From a virus: a DNA stretch of 28,571 bases. A program made the position numbers and the translations under genes. The DNA is taken from the IMG/VR virus record IMGVR_UViG_3300045988_100739, positions 1 through 28,571 of that record; one strand, 5' to 3'. Shown piece after piece: positions 1 through 28,571 of the stretch; position 1 is the stretch's first letter; each line of letters starts with the position of its first letter. The notes beneath the pieces were generated by a model that was not told the origin of the DNA, did no database searches, and saw only the letters and a list, made by a program, of their open reading frames with translations.

Positions 1-123
1 CACCGGAGACGTGCCGCACATCTTGGCGAGCTGCTTCCGGCTCATGTCGTGCTCGACCGTGTAGCGGCGTCGTCTGCCGCAGAACGGGCACGGCTTCAAC
101 CCGTCAAGTTCCGGCTCATTCAT
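1..123 (-). CDS. N-terminal part of a small Lar-like Zn-ribbon/HTH_XRE fusion protein. The gene wraps across the window ends and continues at 28516..28403; full length 78 aa.
   Basis: ATG at 123..121. Translation is MNEPELDGLKPCPFCGRRRRYTVEHDMSRKQLAKMCGTSPV..., the same LKPCPFCG opening as the neighbouring Lar-like gene, followed by an HTH_XRE-like segment. The terminal 55-nt duplication shows the contig is circular. Confidence 0.5.
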   Translation of the reverse strand, partial: MNEPELDGLKPCPFCGRRRRYTVEHDMSRKQLAKMCGTSPV

Positions 124-662: not shown

Positions 663-1048
663 TTGTCCTCACCCCTCAGCCGGCGGATGCGTTTCTTGAT
701 GTCTTTGAACACCGACGCCGTGCATCCGCATGTATCGCTGTCGGGTCTGGCGCATTTTGAGCAATCCCCTCCTCCCTTGTTGAAATACCGACAAGAGTTG
801 CTCTCCTCTATGCACCTGTCCAAGTCCTCTTCGAGCTTCTCCCAGCTGTCGGGCGGTGTGATGTAGAGGCACGAAGTGTAGTAGGTCAAAGTGTTTAACA
901 TAACCGCCTCCCACACGCGCTCCCGAATGCTCTGGCGCACCGAACAGAAATAACGAGACACTTCGAGCTCATTGCCGCACTCGTCATACAGCACTTTGGT
1001 ATCGAGCGGGATCACACAGCCATTAGCGTCCCTCGGTGGCTCAATCAT
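659..1048 (-). CDS. Cysteine-rich hypothetical protein (10 Cys; C-terminal CxxxxxxC..CxxC..CxC cluster), 129 aa.
   Basis: Intact ORF with operon-style overlaps. No family recognised. Confidence 0.45.
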   Translation of the reverse strand: MIEPPRDANGCVIPLDTKVLYDECGNELEVSRYFCSVRQSIRERVWEAVMLNTLTYYTSCLYITPPDSWEKLEEDLDRCIEESNSCRYFNKGGGDCSKCARPDSDTCGCTASVFKDIKKRIRRLRGEDK

Positions 1049-1284
1049 TCGTGTTGCTCCTTTACTCTCTCGTTTGCTATCTCAGCGTGCTCTTCGACTA
1101 TCTCGCATCCGATGAACGGAACACCAAGCTCGGCGCAGGCCACCGCCGTCGTACCGCTGCCGAGAAACGGGTCTATGACTCCGATCCCGACCACCGGGGT
1201 CAGTCCCGCGTAGGTCATGGCCTCGATACCCCCCCCCATGAGTTTCGGGCCGTCGCCCACGTAGACGCTGCCTATCTCCCGCAT
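1045..1284 (-). pseudogene. Orphan C-terminal fragment (79 aa) of a beta-class DNA amino-methyltransferase (motif I, SAM-binding). It contains a G9 homopolymer.
   Basis: VIDPFLGSGTTAVACAELGVPFIGCEIVEE matches the DPFxGSGTT...FIGxEI C-terminal motif I of N6A/N4C beta-class methylases. No DPPY catalytic motif lies upstream. It has its own ATG (1284) and an AGGGGA RBS. The G9 run is at 1221-1229. Confidence 0.5.
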
Positions 1285-2266: not shown

Positions 2267-2295
2267 GTCAGGCTCCTTTCACTTGCCTTGGCTAT

Positions 2296-2324
2296 ATTCT
2301 ATAACGACTGTATCAACTTTGCAA
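2296..2324 (-). promoter_or_regulatory. Sigma70-like promoter P1 (minus strand): -35 TTGCAA (2319-2324), 17-nt spacer, -10 TAGAAT (2296-2301).
   Basis: Minus-strand read is TTGCAAagttgatacagtcgttaTAGAAT, followed by the conserved leader atagccaaggcaagtgaaaggagcc and ATG 2266. It belongs to a 4-member family (P1-P4). Confidence 0.6.
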
Positions 2325-2335
2325 CAACTTTATTC

Positions 2336-2359
2336 GAGAAAAAGGGACCGAAGTCCCAG
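2336..2359 (-). terminator. Intrinsic terminator T1 downstream of the MazG-like gene.
   Basis: Minus strand CTGGGACTTCGGTCCC followed by TTTTTC. It sits immediately 5' of P1. Confidence 0.6.
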
Positions 2360-3407: not shown

Positions 3408-3436
3408 ATGGTAAAACAACTGTATCAACTTTGCAA
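3408..3436 (-). promoter_or_regulatory. Sigma70-like promoter P2: -35 TTGCAA (3431-3436), 17-nt spacer, -10 TACCAT (3408-3413).
   Basis: About 60 bp around it are near-identical to P1, including the whole 25-nt leader and RBS. Confidence 0.55.
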
Positions 3437-3447
3437 CAACTTTTCGT

Positions 3448-3476
3448 AAAGAAAAGGGGAGCGCGAAGCTCCCCAG
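3448..3476 (-). terminator. Intrinsic terminator T2 ending the replication/recombination operon (downstream of ssb).
   Basis: Minus strand GGGGAGCTTCGCGCTCCCC followed by TTTTCTTT. Confidence 0.6.
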
Positions 3477-5130: not shown

Positions 5131-5389
5131 CGCGGAGCGCCTCCTTCATATCCGACAAGGCCCTCGACAGCAGCGCGGCCCTGTCACCGGTTGGCCCGTG
5201 GTGCGTTTTCGCGAAGTCTGCATAGAACTCGACCGGGTGCTTAACGGCCGCCATGCGGTCGGAAACGCATCCGCAAAGTACAGTGACGAGCACGTCGTAC
5301 GACCTGTCAGCCTCCATCCCGAGGTTGCGCTTGAACTCCTTCATCGTGCTGCAACCGTCTGTCGCGTCGAGGAACCTGTCCAGATTCAT
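5123..5389 (-). CDS. Hypothetical protein, 88 aa.
   Basis: Intact ORF with operon-style overlaps. Confidence 0.4.
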   Translation of the reverse strand: MNLDRFLDATDGCSTMKEFKRNLGMEADRSYDVLVTVLCGCVSDRMAAVKHPVEFYADFAKTHHGPTGDRAALLSRALSDMKEALRDD

Positions 5390-5610
5390 CGGTAGACCTC
5401 CTCAAGACTGAAGTACTTCCCGCACTTCTCCGCATATGCGTCGCGCACCTTCAGCACCGTACGCGGCATCAGCCCGCACTTGCTGAAATCACCGTCGCAG
5501 ATGCGGTAGAGCATCGTGCGCTGGATCCCGCACGCCTCGGCCGCCTTGGACACTGAACCGCACGCGGATACCAGCTCCTTCGCGGCCTGCGATACGACCA
5601 GATACGACAT
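5386..5610 (-). CDS. Small HTH DNA-binding protein, about 74 aa.
   Basis: The probable start is MSYLVVSQ (ATG 5610, AAAGGAG RBS). VSACGSVSKAAEACGIQRTMLYRI is a helix-turn-helix pattern. Confidence 0.45.
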   Translation of the reverse strand: MSYLVVSQAAKELVSACGSVSKAAEACGIQRTMLYRICDGDFSKCGLMPRTVLKVRDAYAEKCGKYFSLEEVYR

Positions 5611-5638
5611 AGACAACTCCTTTCCGCTTCGTTGTGTA

Positions 5639-5992
5639 TCAGCATTGTAACACACGATAGCGGTGAACACCCGGGGAAACTTCGATGGATGCCAGCGCCG
5701 CCATGTTGACGCGATAGAACGTCCTCACGCCGGTCTCGCCCATCACGCCCTCAGTCTTCGTCTCGATGAGGCCGTGCCTCGATAGAAGCCTGAGTCTCGC
5801 CCGCAGCGTCGCCCTGCCGCCGCACCGCGCATCCCACAGGTCGCCCTCAACCACCGAATAATCGAACCGCGTCCATTCCCCATCCGACGAAGCCCCGTCG
5901 ATGAGGTATGCGAGCGTCACTGTGTCCGCGAGCGAGAACGGCGAGCCGTCCGGCAGCTCGACAAGTGTGCCGTTGTGTCCAACTGTAATCAT
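5639..5992 (-). CDS. Hypothetical protein, 117 aa, possibly with a winged-helix segment (RARLRLLSRHGLIE).
   Basis: Intact ORF preceded by a repeat-rich intergenic region (5993-6092). Confidence 0.4.
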   Translation of the reverse strand: MITVGHNGTLVELPDGSPFSLADTVTLAYLIDGASSDGEWTRFDYSVVEGDLWDARCGGRATLRARLRLLSRHGLIETKTEGVMGETGVRTFYRVNMAALASIEVSPGVHRYRVLQC

Positions 5993-6314: not shown

Positions 6315-7187
6315 CTACGGCCTCGGGTTCCACGGGTACTTGGAGCGCGGGAACTGCCGCTCTGTTCCCCCGGCCGCGACCCACTCCTTGGTGAGCCTGT
6401 CGGCCTCGACGTATTCAGGGACCCCATTCTGGACGCACCAGTCGTAGTGGGCGCAACAAGAAGACGGGAACCCTCCCTTGCCCGTGGAGTTCATGTAGTC
6501 CTTGATGAGACGTTCGCGCGGTGACCTCTCCGCCGCACCGACGTATGCCTCCCCGACAGGGGCGGTGCAGGAGGCGTCGGACTTCACCGAGCCGGTCTGC
6601 TGGTCCTTCCTGATCCATTTCGAGATCGTGAGGCGGTAGTTCCTGTACAGCTTGCCGGACTGCTCGCAGTACTCGTCTACCTTGGTGATGTAGTCGCGCC
6701 AGAACCCGGGGAACTGCTCATCGAGTTTCGCCGCGTCATCATCCGACAGAAGCACGTGACCGAACTCGCCGAGCTTGTGCCTTCTATCTCTAGCATTATC
6801 ACTATTCTTATTACTAGTTATATCCCCTATATTATTGGGTGATGTTTCATCACCAGTTACTGGTGATGTTTCATCACCAGTCCGGTGATGTTTCATCACC
6901 AGTGATGTTTTATCACCGGTGATGTTTTTGCACACCCTGTAGGCGCAACCCTGACCCGTCCTGACCTTCTCGACGAGTCCCTTGTCCGTGAGTTTCTGGA
7001 GCACATTGATAGCGTTCCTGCGGGCGATTCCGCACCAGTCCGCGACGTACTGGGTGGAGCCGGTGAACCAGGACTCGCCGTCCTGCGAGAACCCGTAGAT
7101 GAGCGCGTATGCGACGAGTTCCGATCCCTTCAGGCCCAACTCCTCGACCATGAACGGCCTGAGAACGACATACGATTCCGTTTGCAT
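6315..7187 (-). CDS. Replication initiator / replisome organiser (lambda-O-like). It has an N-terminal winged-helix domain, a repeat-encoded linker and a C-terminal domain.
   Basis: The N-terminus ELGLKGSELVAYALIYGFSQDGESWFTGSTQYVADWCGIARRNAINVLQKLTDKGLVEK resembles phage replisome-organiser/DnaD-like DNA-binding domains. The linker TGDETSPVTGDETSP is encoded by DNA iterons. ATG 7187 with AAGGAG 6 nt upstream. Confidence 0.5.
   Translation of the reverse strand: MQTESYVVLRPFMVEELGLKGSELVAYALIYGFSQDGESWFTGSTQYVADWCGIARRNAINVLQKLTDKGLVEKVRTGQGCAYRVCKNITGDKTSLVMKHHRTGDETSPVTGDETSPNNIGDITSNKNSDNARDRRHKLGEFGHVLLSDDDAAKLDEQFPGFWRDYITKVDEYCEQSGKLYRNYRLTISKWIRKDQQTGSVKSDASCTAPVGEAYVGAAERSPRERLIKDYMNSTGKGGFPSSCCAHYDWCVQNGVPEYVEADRLTKEWVAAGGTERQFPRSKYPWNPRP
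6838..6929. repeat. Array of 4-5 palindromic iterons GGTGATGTTTCATCACC (starts 6838, 6862, 6884, 6902, 6918) inside the initiator gene, flanked at 6781-6840 by a strongly AT-rich tract. Putative origin of replication.
   Basis: Seen directly in the sequence. Each unit is a perfect 7-bp inverted repeat (GGTGATG/CATCACC) with a TTT spacer. The adjacent 60-bp AT-rich run is the lowest-GC patch in the genome. Confidence 0.65.
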
Positions 7188-7198
7188 GACCACTCCTT

Positions 7199-7245
7199 AA
7201 AACAACAAACCCGCCGGGTAGATTGCGCCTACCTGACGGGTTTGT
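7199..7245 (-). terminator. Intrinsic terminator-like hairpin plus T-run between the Hjc gene and the replication gene. It lies in the leader just upstream of the initiator RBS.
   Basis: Minus strand ACAAACCCGTCAGGTAGGCGCAATCTACCCGGCGGGTTTGTTGTTTT, then AAGGAGtggtcATG. Confidence 0.5.
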
Positions 7246-7329
7246 CACATCACCCTCCGCCTACCTAAACGGAGCTGTATTACAGACCTGCTGGGAAACA
7301 GGCGTGATAGCTATGTGCGGGCGCAATCC

Positions 7330-7338
7330 GCGTGTATC
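7330..7338 (-). promoter_or_regulatory. Extended -10 element TGATATAAT (minus strand), candidate promoter for the replication/recombination operon. An 8-bp perfect inverted repeat GGGCCGCG/CGCGGCCC (7358-7389) lies just upstream.
   Basis: TGnTATAAT matches the extended -10 consensus. No good -35 is present. The same 9-mer recurs at 25904-25912. Confidence 0.35.
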
Positions 7339-7415
7339 AATTATATCACACGGAGGCCCGTAGGGCTGGGCCGCGTGTGGTATGGGAGACTCGCGGCCCG
7401 TCTGTAAGTATAGCA

Positions 7416-11920: not shown

Positions 11921-11949
11921 AAAGCAAAAGGGACGGCCTGAACCGTCCC
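11921..11949 (-). terminator. Intrinsic terminator immediately upstream of the terS RBS, with no intervening promoter.
   Basis: Minus strand GGGACGGTTCAGGCCGTCCC followed by TTTTGCTTT, then AAGGGGAGtgagccATG. Confidence 0.55.
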
Positions 11950-11984: not shown

Positions 11985-12140
11985 TCAGATGCCGTTTTTA
12001 GCCCGCTTCACCGCTTTGGCGAGCAACCACACCGGGAGCGCGAGGAACGTGCAGATAACGCCGATGTAGGCGAGCAGCACGAAACGCAGCACTCCCCACC
12101 ACCAACCGATGAGAACCCAGTAAAGGCAGCCGTGCCGCAT
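11985..12140 (-). CDS. Small membrane protein (51 aa, Trp-rich TM: MRHGCLYWVLIGWWWGVLRFVLLAYIGVICTFLALPVWLL...).
   Basis: Its ATG overlaps the upstream stop (TGATG). Strongly hydrophobic. Lies downstream of the endolysin. Candidate holin/spanin-like or superinfection-exclusion protein. Confidence 0.4.
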   Translation of the reverse strand: MRHGCLYWVLIGWWWGVLRFVLLAYIGVICTFLALPVWLLAKAVKRAKNGI

Positions 12141-12307
12141 CAGTACATCACCTGCGTATAGTATGCCGAGGCATAGGCTAGGACGGTGAACGCCGCCCAT
12201 GCCGCCGTGACGCCGATGCTCTTCTTGTCCCATACCGACGTGAGCGCATTGCAGGCCCCGACGCACACCATCACGAGCGACGCGAGCTGAACCGTGAACT
12301 GCTCCAT
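12140..12307 (-). CDS. Small 2-TM membrane protein (55 aa: MEQFTVQLASLVMVCVGACNALTSVWDKKSIGVTAAWAAFTVLAYASAYYTQVMY).
   Basis: Its ATG overlaps the upstream stop. It sits inside a larger spurious track ORF (12140..12613). Confidence 0.4.
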   Translation of the reverse strand: MEQFTVQLASLVMVCVGACNALTSVWDKKSIGVTAAWAAFTVLAYASAYYTQVMY

Positions 12308-12611: not shown

Positions 12612-12640
12612 ATAATACAACTACTGTATCAACTTTGCAA
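12612..12640 (-). promoter_or_regulatory. Sigma70-like promoter P3: -35 TTGCAA (12635-12640), 17-nt spacer, -10 TATTAT (12612-12617).
   Basis: TTGCAAagttgatacagtagttgTATTAT shares the -35 and the first 12 nt of the spacer with P1 and P2. Confidence 0.55.
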
Positions 12641-12644
12641 CACT

Positions 12645-12681
12645 AAACCGAAAACAACGCCCCCCGGCAGAACCGGAGGGC
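12645..12681 (-). terminator. Intrinsic terminator T3 downstream of the endolysin gene.
   Basis: Minus strand GCCCTCCGGttctgCCGGGGGGC followed by GTTGTTTTCGGTTT. Confidence 0.5.
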
Positions 12682-12746
12682 ATCGGAAAGGAGCAGCGCC
12701 GACGGCGAAAGGCACGCAGAAAGACCGCCGGCGCACTGGGATTGTA

Positions 12747-18563: not shown

Positions 18564-19118
18564 TTACAGGTGGAGACGACCGAACGCCTCCTTCTGGACT
18601 TCGATTGCCCTCGCGTCCTCCGGCGTCCTGAGTGCCGGCAGCGCGTAGGCCCTTTTCATTTTAGACCAGTGCTGATGCTCGGCGTCCTTCTCCCGGCTTG
18701 GCTTGGTGTAGCCACGGTACTGCATGACCTTGCCAAGCGCCGTTCCGTCGGGAAGGTTGTCCAACAAGGCCCTGAACCGCCACCAGTGCATGTGGCAGTC
18801 GGTGAGGTCGATGCCGTAGCACTGCTGGAAAGCGGCCACGATGCGGCCTCCGTCCTCGATGTAGTCGAATACCCTCGGGCCGTTCGATGATAGGCCGTGC
18901 GGCGTCTCCGTCTTGCAGGCCGCGAACTCCGCCGCCGCCTCGACCCACCCATCATCGTCAGGCACGTCGCCGGTGAAGATGTATGACCCGGCCTTGCGCG
19001 CGGTCTGCGCGTCTACCGCCCATCGGATCCATACGCGGAAGTCAGTGTCTATGGGAAAGAAAAGCCCGCCGACCTCTAGGCCAACGGGCAGTCCCTCGTC
19101 TCTGAGGTCAATCATCAT
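18564..19118 (-). CDS. Tail assembly chaperone, T-like (Phage_Gp15 family).
   Basis: MMIDL...PVGLEVGGLFFPIDTDFRVWIRW matches the Gp15 N-terminal motif. Its ATG overlaps the stop of the upstream G-like gene (ATGA), in the -1 frame. Confidence 0.55.
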   Translation of the reverse strand: MMIDLRDEGLPVGLEVGGLFFPIDTDFRVWIRWAVDAQTARKAGSYIFTGDVPDDDGWVEAAAEFAACKTETPHGLSSNGPRVFDYIEDGGRIVAAFQQCYGIDLTDCHMHWWRFRALLDNLPDGTALGKVMQYRGYTKPSREKDAEHQHWSKMKRAYALPALRTPEDARAIEVQKEAFGRLHL

Positions 19119-26375: not shown

Positions 26376-26405
26376 CGGGGTCTCCCTTCCCTGTTCGTTG
26401 TCTCA

Positions 26406-26434
26406 ATTCTAATACAACTATTCGCGAAGGGCAA
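26406..26434 (-). promoter_or_regulatory. Sigma70-like promoter P4, a divergent family member: -35 TTGCCC (26429-26434), 17-nt spacer, -10 TAGAAT (26406-26411).
   Basis: TTGCCCttcgcgaatagttgtatTAGAAT. Like P1-P3 it is directly preceded by a terminator. Confidence 0.4.
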
Positions 26435-26455: not shown

Positions 26456-26479
26456 AAAAAAGCCCCGGTTTCCCGAGGC
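26456..26479 (-). terminator. Intrinsic terminator T4 (possibly bidirectional).
   Basis: Minus strand GCCTCGGGAAACCGGGGC followed by TTTTTTG. The plus strand also carries a T-run after the hairpin. Confidence 0.55.
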
Positions 26480-26484
26480 CTTTT

Positions 26485-26610
26485 CTAAACTTGACTTAGT
26501 TTCGTAATTGCGTCGATATTGTCGCTGTCGTGCTGCCTGGCGTTGCCGTCGTAGGCCTTGAGGCTGTCCAGCGGTATGAGCTGCGCCTCCACGTCCCTCA
26601 ACTCGTTCAA
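26485..26610 (-). pseudogene. Truncated N-terminal remnant (41 codons, TTG start) resembling the ParB-like nuclease domain that opens ParB-methyltransferase fusion proteins.
   Basis: MNELRDVEAQLIPLDSLKAYDGNARQHDSDNIDAI compares with ...I.I..L.PY..NPR.H...QI..I of ParB/Sulfiredoxin-fold methylase N-termini. It stops after 41 aa. AGGAGAGAG RBS overlapping the HNH stop. Confidence 0.3.
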
Positions 26611-27419: not shown

Positions 27420-28406
27420 CTATAGCCCGTCTACTTCCTCGATGCGCTCTCCAAGCCAGCGCATGACGGGAACCGCCATCGAGTTGCCGATTGCCTTGTA
27501 CCTCGGACCGTCAGGACATTCCTCGGCAGGCTTGCCCTTCCACGATATTCTAGTGTGGTTGTCCGGGAAGCCCTGTAAGCGCTCGCACTCAAGTGGAGTA
27601 AGGCGGCGAAGGGGCGGCGTGGATGCATAGTCGCTCGTACAAACCTCGGTGCCGTACTGGGACAGAGCCGTGTTCGGCAACGACAAGACGGCAGGCGCAT
27701 GCCAGTCCGCGGTGAGCGTGTTTGCTTGCTCTGCCGCATATCCTATTGTGTTTGCTCGGGGCGCGGCGTTGTACTTGAAGCCTGCGCACGCAGCGCTGCG
27801 TCCAGCTCGGTTGGCAAGCTCCTTCCTCTTTTCACAGCTCGATTGAGGATTCCCTGACAGGCAGTCGGGCTCAAAGAGAACCTCTGCGGGGGATTCGGCT
27901 CCAAGATGTCCGACAAGAAACAGACGGCGGCGTCGCTGGGCCACTCCGAAGAACTGCGCGTCCAGAACTCGCCATGCGAGACAATACCCGAGTTCATCCA
28001 TCTCTCTGAGCAGTTGTCCGAAAGCTTCCCCATTCTCGCTTGTGAGCGCTCCCGGTACGTTCTCCCACAAAAACCAGCGAGGACGAAGTTCCTGAACGCA
28101 TCGAATGTACTCGAACATGAGGCCGGATGCTCCTTTGAGCCCTTCTCGCTTTCCCGCGACTGAGAATGACTGGCAGGGACTTCCTCCAACAACAAGGTCA
28201 ACTGCTCCATGAATCTCATTCTTCCAATCTACCTTTTTCCAATCTACCTTTGTGATGTCCCCAAGGTTGGGGACGTCTGGCCACCTCTCTGCAAGAACTG
28301 CGCACGGGAACGGCTCGATTTCCGAGAATGCCATCGGCTCCCAACGGAGTGGCTCCCAAGCGAGCGTCGCCGCCTCGACACCGGAAAAGATGCTTACGTA
28401 CCTCAT
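27420..28406 (-). CDS. dcm: DNA (cytosine-5)-methyltransferase, about 328 aa.
   Basis: Motif I FSGVEAATLA. Motif IV GGSPCQSFSVAG. ENV motif LWENVPG. C-terminal motif X QGFPDNHT...AIGNSMAVPV. ATG 28406 overlaps the upstream HTH stop (ATGA). The track's N-terminal extension to 28535 actually belongs to the upstream HTH gene in another frame. Confidence 0.9.
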   Translation of the reverse strand: MRYVSIFSGVEAATLAWEPLRWEPMAFSEIEPFPCAVLAERWPDVPNLGDITKVDWKKVDWKNEIHGAVDLVVGGSPCQSFSVAGKREGLKGASGLMFEYIRCVQELRPRWFLWENVPGALTSENGEAFGQLLREMDELGYCLAWRVLDAQFFGVAQRRRRLFLVGHLGAESPAEVLFEPDCLSGNPQSSCEKRKELANRAGRSAACAGFKYNAAPRANTIGYAAEQANTLTADWHAPAVLSLPNTALSQYGTEVCTSDYASTPPLRRLTPLECERLQGFPDNHTRISWKGKPAEECPDGPRYKAIGNSMAVPVMRWLGERIEEVDGL

Positions 28407-28571
28407 TCGTCCGCCTTCACAACCAGCTCGTTTACATCCATCTTCATGGCGTTCGCCATGTTGGACAGCACGCGCAGCGGCAGTTTGTAATGACCGTTGA
28501 GGTACCTGCTGAACGTCACCGGAGACGTGCCGCACATCTTGGCGAGCTGCTTCCGGCTCATGTCGTGCTCG
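28403..28571 (-). CDS. C-terminal (HTH_XRE) part of the wrapped Lar-like/HTH gene. See feature 1..123; 28517-28571 duplicates 1-55.
   Basis: Translation ...MSRKQLAKMCGTSPVTFSRYLNGHYKLPLRVLSNMANAMKMDVNELVVKADE*. The stop is TGA at 28405..28403. Confidence 0.5.
   Translation of the reverse strand, partial: EHDMSRKQLAKMCGTSPVTFSRYLNGHYKLPLRVLSNMANAMKMDVNELVVKADE
28517..28571. repeat. Exact 55-nt duplicate of positions 1-55: a circular-contig closure overlap. True genome length 28,516 bp.
   Basis: Identical strings at both window ends. An ORF reads through the junction without interruption. Confidence 0.9.

Follow-up and report, generated by a model that had tools for sequence, protein, structure and literature searches.

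Among the closest described counterparts of the locus analysed here are the operators of the lambdoid Cro and CI proteins (lambda OR/OL, 434, P22, N15), repeated 14-18-bp partial dyads that lie over the -35 or -10 elements of early promoters. The protein that binds these operators is a small HTH dimer whose gene is close by, and an autoregulated Cro-like gene lies beside one of the sites. Promoters may also carry a site for an activator, such as the MotA box of phage T4, which is centred at -30. In the SPO1 host-takeover module and in the early operons of T5 and T7, several strong host-type promoters drive short operons closed by terminators. Morons, in turn, are promoter-gene-terminator insertions in lambdoid prophages and are defined by their expression from the prophage. 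Repeated intergenic motifs have also been described in actinobacteriophages. Cluster O phages carry a repeated 17-bp dyad, TGTTCGGNNNCCGAACA, whose binding factor is unknown there (PMC4351075), and the stoperators of Cluster A are asymmetric, monomer-bound sites that block elongation (PMC9283540, PMC6550527). Both motifs occur in 20-35 copies per genome, mostly away from promoters (PMC4351075, PMC9283540, PMC6550527).

The window, that is, the whole stretch of 28,571 nt that was analysed, begins and ends with the same sequence (Table 1) and hence represents a circular, complete assembly of 28,516 bp. The virus is a small uncultivated siphovirus of the human gut, probably with Collinsella as its host, and its lifestyle is apparently lytic. 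The closest matches in genome collections are contigs binned with uncultured Collinsella (capsid identity of 97% and 91%), and the metagenome matches originate from the human gut. Metagenomes contain many members of the capsid family, for the most part on contigs of 28-33 kb, and the related contigs, about 28-31 kb in size, are circular genomes in free form. Similarity to cultured phages, searched with the whole window, is limited to a tape-measure segment of Microbacterium phages (76-81%), and a literature search on Collinsella siphoviruses returned nothing relevant. Rfam and tRNA scans of the window gave no matches. The whole gene set, as well as the four promoter sites discussed below, lies on the minus strand; gene order and functions (Table 1) were taken from PHROGs and Pfam scans. 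Among about 50 ORFs these scans found no integrase, immunity repressor, RNA polymerase or sigma factor, and transcription relies on the host polymerase, given the lack of a polymerase or sigma match. T7-like or MotA/AsiA-type promoters were considered unlikely, as no such phage factor appeared in the PHROGs and Pfam scans, although small uncharacterised proteins could still be MotA/AsiA-like factors.

Table 1. Coordinates and composition of the features of the window.
Feature	Position	Strand	Description
Terminal overlap	1-55 = 28517-28571		55 nt identical
P1 promoter	2324->2296	minus	TTGCAA-17-TAGAAT
P1 18-mer	2309..2326	minus	invariant TGTTGCAAAGTTGATACA; includes -35 TTGCAA at 2324->2319
P1 -10	2296..2301	minus	TAGAAT, 17 nt past the -35
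P1 leader	2267..2295	minus	Shine-Dalgarno AAAGGAG; ATG at 2266
P2 promoter	3436->3408	minus	TTGCAA-17-TACCAT; part spans 3408..3438
P2 elements	18-mer 3438->3421; -35 3436->3431; -10 3413->3408	minus	ATG 3378
P3 promoter	12640->12612	minus	TTGCAA-17-TATTAT; part spans 12612..12642
P3 elements	18-mer 12642->12625; -10 12617->12612	minus	leader of its own; ATG 12579
P4 promoter	26434->26406	minus	TTGCCC-17-TAGAAT; part spans 26399..26434; ATG 26375
Loose 18-mer variant at P4 (suggestive)	26416->26399	minus	TGTATTAGAATTGAGACA; overlaps -10 and +1
Fourth 18-mer copy (5652)	5635..5652	minus	TGTTACAATGCTGATACA; 24 nt upstream of g5610 start
Loose 18-mer variant at 7350 (suggestive)	7333..7350	minus	TGTGATATAATTGATACA; extended -10 TGaTATAAT (7345->7337)
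Terminator T1	2335..2357	minus	GGGAC-UUCG-GUCCC then UUUUUCUCG; -12.8 kcal/mol; closes P2 unit
Terminator T2	3447..3474	minus	GGGGAGC-UUCGC-GCUCCCC then UUUUCUUU; -16.3 kcal/mol; behind SSB gene
Terminator T3	12645..12685	minus	14-bp stem then UUUUCGGUUU; -30.8 kcal/mol, z -4.6; behind endolysin gene
Terminator T4	26456..26485	minus	AAAAGGCCUCGGG-AAA-CCGGGGCUUUUUU; -22.5 kcal/mol, z -3.3; behind HNH gene
P3-unit terminator	11930..11949	minus	closes three-gene unit, just upstream of small terminase gene
g5610	5386..5610	minus	74 aa; candidate Cro-like HTH; motif SVSKAAEACGIQRTMLYRI
XRE-type HTH gene, 5' part	1..123	minus	ATG at 123
XRE-type HTH gene, 3' part	28403..28571 (28516->28403)	minus	Pfam HTH_3, E 6.5e-8; crosses circular junction
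Unit 1		minus	P4, two small genes, terminator
Unit 2			TATAAT promoter and structured leader; scaffold, major capsid, connectors, tail, tape measure, holin, endolysin; T3
Unit 3			P3, three small genes (two membrane-protein-like), terminator
Unit 4			TerS, TerL, portal, MuF-like, Hjc-like
Unit 5			promoter at 7350; replication initiator and further genes to Rad52-like annealase and SSB; T2
Unit 6			P2, four small genes, T1
Unit 7, first part			P1, two small genes, Gp157-like, methylase fragment, ASCH
Unit 7, rest			Lar-like, XRE-HTH, C5-methylase, HNH, T4

A sequence-only reading of this DNA had described a family of four near-identical promoter cassettes, each directly preceded by an intrinsic terminator. 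The hexamers and the exact 17-nt spacers were borne out at all four sites, and a GC-rich hairpin, located downstream of a stop codon and directly followed by a U-run, stands ahead of each of them with the folding energies given in Table 1. The T1 hairpin is kept in 12 relatives and that of T2 in relatives as well, each with one GC<->AU compensatory pair, while the terminator loops vary across cassette variants. P1-P3 display the -35-like hexamer, 17-nt spacer and -10 TAnnnT of a sigma-70/SigA promoter, with TTGCAA matching the consensus at 4 of 6 positions. Scans with the sigma-70 consensus gave 3 sites where shuffles predicted 4.5, and 5 where they predicted 2.5, which is no excess; since sigma-70 likeness is not enriched over shuffles, promoter status is judged from position, context and conservation. 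By these marks, the P1-P3 and P4 sites are very probably promoters preceded by terminators.

Near-identity is confined to three of the sites, as a profile derived from the family returns 56-61 bits for P1-P3 but -9.9 for P4. P4 has in common with the others only GTTGC and a loose TGT..TTGAGACA likeness, and its -35 is not kept in relatives, in which the conserved block starts exactly at the 5' edge of the 18-mer variant; P4 was rejected as a fourth family member on its profile score and its unconserved -35. P1, P2 and P3 do open their spacers with AGTTGATACAGT, and P1 and P2 do share an identical 25-nt leader, ATAGCCAAGGCAAGTGAAAGGAGCC, both as claimed; together P1 and P2 form an 84-nt repeat of 85% identity. 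The 18-mer TTGCAAAGTTGATACAGT occurs three times in the window, against an expectation of 0.00. On the other hand, the idea of a shared translational control by the leader found no support, as nothing was seen past a strong Shine-Dalgarno sequence and P3 and P4 have leaders that differ from each other and from that of P1/P2.

The cassettes do head transcription units, but the claim that each heads a group of small unknown genes fails for P1, whose unit of about 4.3 kb also takes in the Gp157-like, ASCH, Lar-like, XRE-HTH, C5-methylase and HNH genes. Pfam and PHROGs assigned no function to the genes directly behind each cassette, and the sole match behind them is a sub-threshold HPIP_like one to the second gene of the P2 unit. 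The P2, P3 and P4 units consist of a promoter, 2-4 small genes and a terminator, with first genes that are present or absent among relatives. Such units resemble morons in being autonomous and inserted between conserved genes (the P3 unit between lysin and terminase, the P4 unit between HNH and scaffold) with variable content, and differ from them in that no lysogeny module was found and that a common cassette takes the place of signals proper to each unit. The moron-like label accordingly holds for structure and variable gene content and not for prophage expression, of which there is no sign because neither an integrase nor an immunity repressor was found among the approximately 50 ORFs. Four equivalent, insulated, moron-like cassettes, co-regulated through a spacer site or a translational leader, would account for the terminator followed by a 17-nt-spacer promoter at all four sites and for the small variable units behind P2, P3 and P4. 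This reading is nevertheless very improbable: P4 stands outside the family, the leaders differ between P1/P2, P3 and P4, the P1 unit is an operon of core early functions, and the defining feature of morons is left unsupported by the lack of lysogeny genes. A further resemblance is to SPO1, T5 and T7, in that host-type promoters each drive a short, terminator-closed operon of small uncharacterised genes; in those phages, however, the promoters are not near-identical outside the hexamers and are clustered at one genome end, whereas here they are spread around the genome.

The conservation of the cassettes was followed among close relatives. A first sample, obtained by searching for the 18-mer, gave 17 true sites in 10 related IMG/VR contigs; variation was searched at up to 5 mismatches in loci fetched via the Gp157-like protein, and 33 distinct cassettes from about 14 related contigs were compared (24 of the P1/P2 type and 9 of the P3 type). 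In all 33, TGTTGCAAAGTTGATACA, whose span takes in the -35 together with the 10 distal nucleotides of the spacer, is unchanged at 18 of 18 positions. The spacer bases next to the -10 are variable at 7 of 7 positions, the -10 is constant only as TA..AT (TAGAAT, TAAGAT, TACCAT, TACTAT and TATTAT), and the upstream linker varies as well. Because this sample had been seeded on the 18-mer itself, a second one was drawn from metagenome contigs via the leader/RBS pattern, and it contained the intact 18-mer in 11 of 11 cases together with six proximal-spacer alleles. The 17-nt spacing and TA..AT are constant in the resulting 44 cassette variants, and the spacing is also kept, with a TAnnnT-type -10, in five distant lineages. 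The proposed search of other phage genomes for the cassette thus led to related IMG/VR contigs, which carry the 18-mer; it led to no cultured phage with the cassette, which gives only chance 21-nt matches there.

As judged from these alignments, an invariant -35, constant spacing and a fixed A2 and T6 of the -10 are the pattern of a real promoter. RNA polymerase normally imposes no selection on spacer bases of this kind, and by the same comparison ten of them appear to be selected beyond what a promoter needs. Copies of the 18-mer lie across core elements of more than one promoter, and their conservation exceeds what a promoter requires, as would be expected of a repressor operator of the Cro/CI type. 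The suggestion of a dedicated regulator site fits the conserved spacer and was misplaced in its limits, as the block is TGTTGCAAAGTTGATACA (-37 to -20) and not AGTTGATACAGT, whose last two bases (GT) vary among relatives.

With moderate confidence, we favour the interpretation that P1-P3 are host-sigma promoters, probably early ones, with an embedded operator and that the 18-mer is the site of a trans-acting repressor. According to this model, P1-P3 would be three copies of one portable expression cassette, composed of an intrinsic terminator for the preceding unit, an A/T-rich linker that, with the T-run, may serve as an UP element, a promoter of the host sigma-A/sigma-70 type (TTGCAA-17 nt-TAnnAT) and a leader of 25-35 nt with a strong Shine-Dalgarno sequence. 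The 18-bp element inside the promoter, at about -37 to -20 with its centre near -28.5 and partial dyad symmetry, would be the operator for a phage-encoded HTH protein. Once bound, this protein would block RNA polymerase, so that the three promoters would go off together, either as an early shut-off or as autoregulation.

The close relatives are very alike (capsids 88-97% identical), and part of the invariance of the 18-mer could come from recent spread and gene conversion between copies. It may even be asked whether P1-P3 are no more than duplicates of an ordinary host-type promoter that lacks a regulator of its own, their young copies having been homogenised by frequent homologous recombination or gene conversion, both inside single phages and among co-circulating ones. 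In keeping with this possibility, the cassettes lie exactly at mosaic junctions with different genes downstream, the -10-proximal spacer and the -10 come in separate allelic forms that are reshuffled between P1 and P2, a Rad52-like annealase and a Gp157-like protein are among the phage's gene products, and the close relatives all come from similar human-gut samples. Neutral homogenisation leaves unexplained, however, the absence of any change in 18 bases beside 7 hypervariable ones in 44 cassettes, the conservation of the 5652 copy, which has no promoter -10, and the fact that in distant lineages, too, conservation extends over the -35 plus distal spacer and leaves out the proximal one. On balance we consider this explanation unlikely.

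The 5652 copy of the 18-mer has 3 mismatches in the window and 2 in some relatives, against 0.00 such copies expected. It contains an extended -10, TGnTACAAT, and shares bases with the stop codon of the preceding gene; no TAnnAT lies 17 nt downstream of it, the position that this hexamer occupies in P1-P3. This copy is kept in all close relatives, and at sites of its type the homology between relatives starts exactly at the 5' edge of the 18-mer. A looser variant is found at 7350, within the 228-nt intergenic region (7188-7415) that precedes the replication initiator gene. TTGATACA has 4 exact occurrences in the window where 0.2 are expected, the 7350 site being the fourth, and the dyad TGTNNCAANNTTGNNACA has 6 matches with at most 2 mismatches where 0.39 are expected. 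All six lie at promoter-like sites, namely P1, P2, P3, 5652, TGTGATATAATTGATACA at 7350 and TGTATTAGAATTGAGACA at P4, the last two with 2 mismatches each. Conservation at 7350 is uninformative, because the flanks are equally conserved, and the loose variants at 7350 and P4 are only suggestive as copies of the element. In the dyad TGTnnCAA-nn-TTGnnACA, 6 of 9 positions pair, and the symmetry alone is not significant. Under the repressor model, the extended -10 promoter of g5610, which overlaps the fourth 18-mer, would be the autoregulated promoter of the regulator, and the looser variants overlap the -10/+1 of the replication-gene (7350) and P4 promoters.

The arrangement of these copies also bears on whether the 18-mer might instead be an activator box, MotA-like or class II, with P1-P3 as middle promoters that an early phage protein would turn on and those at 7350 and 5652 as the true early ones. 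The element lies at -37 to -20, as a MotA box would, promoters of the extended -10 type (TRTGnTAnnnT), which do not require a -35, stand before the replication and HTH genes, and TTGCAA reaches only 4 of 6 consensus positions. Yet every lineage keeps a TTG-type -35 exactly 17 nt from a good -10, an arrangement that looks self-sufficient, PHROGs and Pfam detected no MotA/AsiA-like or sigma-like protein, and a copy of the box across -10/+1 at the 5652 promoter is easier to reconcile with repression than with activation. An activating role is thus quite improbable, and repression remains the favoured reading of the element.

The extended -10 of the 7350 promoter is a perfect one, and the leader downstream of it, of about 135 nt, is structured (-58.5 kcal/mol, z -2.8), has no Rfam match and ends in a strong terminator-like hairpin and UGUUUU just before the Shine-Dalgarno sequence of the replication gene. 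It could act as an attenuator or a small RNA.

In more distant relatives, with capsid identities of 60-72%, a terminator, TTGnnn-17-TAnnnT, a short leader and a strong Shine-Dalgarno sequence stand at the same places, in 2-3 mutually similar cassette copies per genome. Each lineage has distal spacers of its own (TGTTGCAnnAGTGGCACA, GTTGTATTATTGCCAC and TTCACAAACGGGAACA): the distal motif is TGTTGCA(nn)AGTGGCACA in L033 and L029, GTTGTATTA(T/A)TGCCAC in L042 and L032, and TTCACAAACGGGAACA.. in L043. Within each distant genome the cassette is best conserved over the -35 plus distal spacer, which agrees with the window. One L033 cassette carries a symmetric change (CAA..TTG to CAC..GTG), and in the same genome both promoter classes end in GCACA, not ATACA. 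On this sequence comparison, the sites evolve in concert within a genome, which fits a co-evolving phage factor. A search for more phages with the L033-type motif TGTTNCANNAGTGGCACA gave 78 IMG/VR matches, of which all but the known L029 lack a -10 context and were set aside as chance.

This behaviour is reminiscent of the Cluster O and Cluster A motifs, as in both cases a short, invariant intergenic motif is conserved within a cluster and variable between lineages, in agreement with co-evolution with a phage DNA-binding protein. Unlike those motifs, the present element has 3-4 strict copies (6 with the loose variants), all of them fused to promoters. A stoperator of the Cluster A type (asymmetric, 13-14 bp, 20-30 copies in one orientation, within operons) was rejected on the same count, as only 3-4 strict copies occur and all are at promoters.

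A pair of 85-nt terminator-promoter cassettes was also seen in L043 (470-554 and 7765-7849), with TTCACA-17-TATCAT and a TGT ahead of the -10 as in an extended -10. Their spacer contains the palindrome AACAyATsTGTT (ACACATGTGT in one copy), which is likely another operator within a promoter.

Two genes of the window come into consideration as the source of the predicted repressor. The first, g5610, has an evident helix-turn-helix and lies beside the fourth 18-mer copy. Its homolog search gave only near-identical proteins, so that no deep alignment was available for structure prediction, and a single-sequence AF2 model reached a pLDDT of 71 (low confidence). The top PDB matches of this model are the N15, Xfaso and 434 Cro proteins, all weak (E 0.3, TM about 0.45-0.5). 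Homologs of g5610 occur in distant lineages, with a helix ERTMFNRI where the sites share TG(G/C)CAC and QRTMLYRI in the TGATAC lineage; the recognition helix is identical in the M2 lineages (AGTGGCACA spacers of L033/L029) and the M3 lineages (TGCCAC spacers of L042/L032) despite their different motifs. The second is the XRE-type HTH gene, which belongs to the P1 unit and is present in all relatives. That the type of this HTH tracks the lineage spacer motif was ruled out, as L029 and L032 share the HTH type and not the motif. Neither HTH follows the lineage motifs cleanly, and the XRE types ignore the M2/M3 split. Since its recognition helices go with site types, g5610 is the better candidate, although as the regulator acting on the 18-mer it is at most a doubtful assignment, with the XRE-HTH of the P1 unit as the alternative. 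Among host regulators, CRP and FNR gave no convincing match to the element, as judged by eye.

With repeated partial dyads that overlap promoters and a Cro-like gene at one of the sites, the layout is similar to that of lambdoid operators, binding being predicted in the present case. It departs from the tandem triplets of OR/OL in having one site per promoter and no divergent promoters, and from lambdoid phages in that no CI or integrase was found and that the sites are distributed across three distant cassettes.

The cassettes coincide with mosaic junctions. The first genes after P2-type cassettes differ among relatives (MKTYE.., MNNIE.., MFA.. and MKY..), as do those after P3-type cassettes (MKAFN.., MEQFT.. 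and MKVKV..), and terminator type and downstream gene are found in new combinations. As the same cassette precedes different genes and homology edges fall at the 18-mer, the cassettes are places of module exchange, which is probably a consequence of their identity. An identical cassette at several places and in many phages would offer a crossover point through which downstream genes are gained, lost or swapped. A broader and more tentative possibility is that of an expression socket, in which the site and a lineage-specific factor would co-evolve, the site being copied to every early unit so that all are timed by one protein, and the same identity would make the cassette a preferred crossover for accessory early genes. 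If this were true, regulation and mosaic evolution would be coupled via one element.

Operators embedded in repeated early promoters are a commonplace of phage biology, and no new principle is involved. What the analysis provides is a concrete, putatively regulatory motif, together with two candidate regulators, for a phage family that is widespread in the human gut and lacks a cultured member, as well as a marker of the sites of gene exchange in these genomes. The cassette, with its terminator, promoter, putative operator and strong RBS, could also be reused as a genetic part in Coriobacteriia.

Several further observations were made on the window and its relatives. The early/replication region of this phage, like that of its nearer relatives, sits between TerS-TerL-portal-MuF-like-Hjc and scaffold/capsid, and more distant relatives (L043, L044 and L045 were compared) have the usual contiguous TerS..MuF-scaffold-capsid order. 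A 79-aa ORF at 1045-1284 (minus strand) is similar to an N6/N4 DNA methylase only across the C-terminal ~40 residues of the latter; in relative L034 a methylase of 206 aa is encoded at this position, and the ORF looks like a truncated remnant. In the P3 unit, whose first gene is absent in some relatives, genes 2 and 3 (11985-12307, minus strand; 55 and 51 aa) are two-pass membrane-protein-like and lie between endolysin and small terminase; their products could be involved in superinfection exclusion or be accessory to lysis.

Inside the replication-initiator gene (7187->6315; HTH_36/DnaD-like), four palindromes GGTGATGTTTCATCACC form an array at 6832-6923, spaced 17-24 nt apart, with a weaker copy at 7014-7042. 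The array is suggestive of an iteron-bearing origin located within the gene of the initiator, as in lambda O. A terminator-like hairpin with a U-run at 19064-19089 (minus strand) falls within the 5' end of a Gp15-like ORF (19118->18564), at the junction of the two genes in the tail-chaperone position. The segment 25760-25935 (minus strand), ahead of the scaffold gene, contains two TATAAT boxes separated by a terminator hairpin (25872-25836), and the scaffold leader forms two hairpins, with GGAAGG in the loop of the last one (-67.4 kcal/mol, z -3.5). The same layout is present in L032, L033 and L042, and this segment is probably the control region of the late operon.
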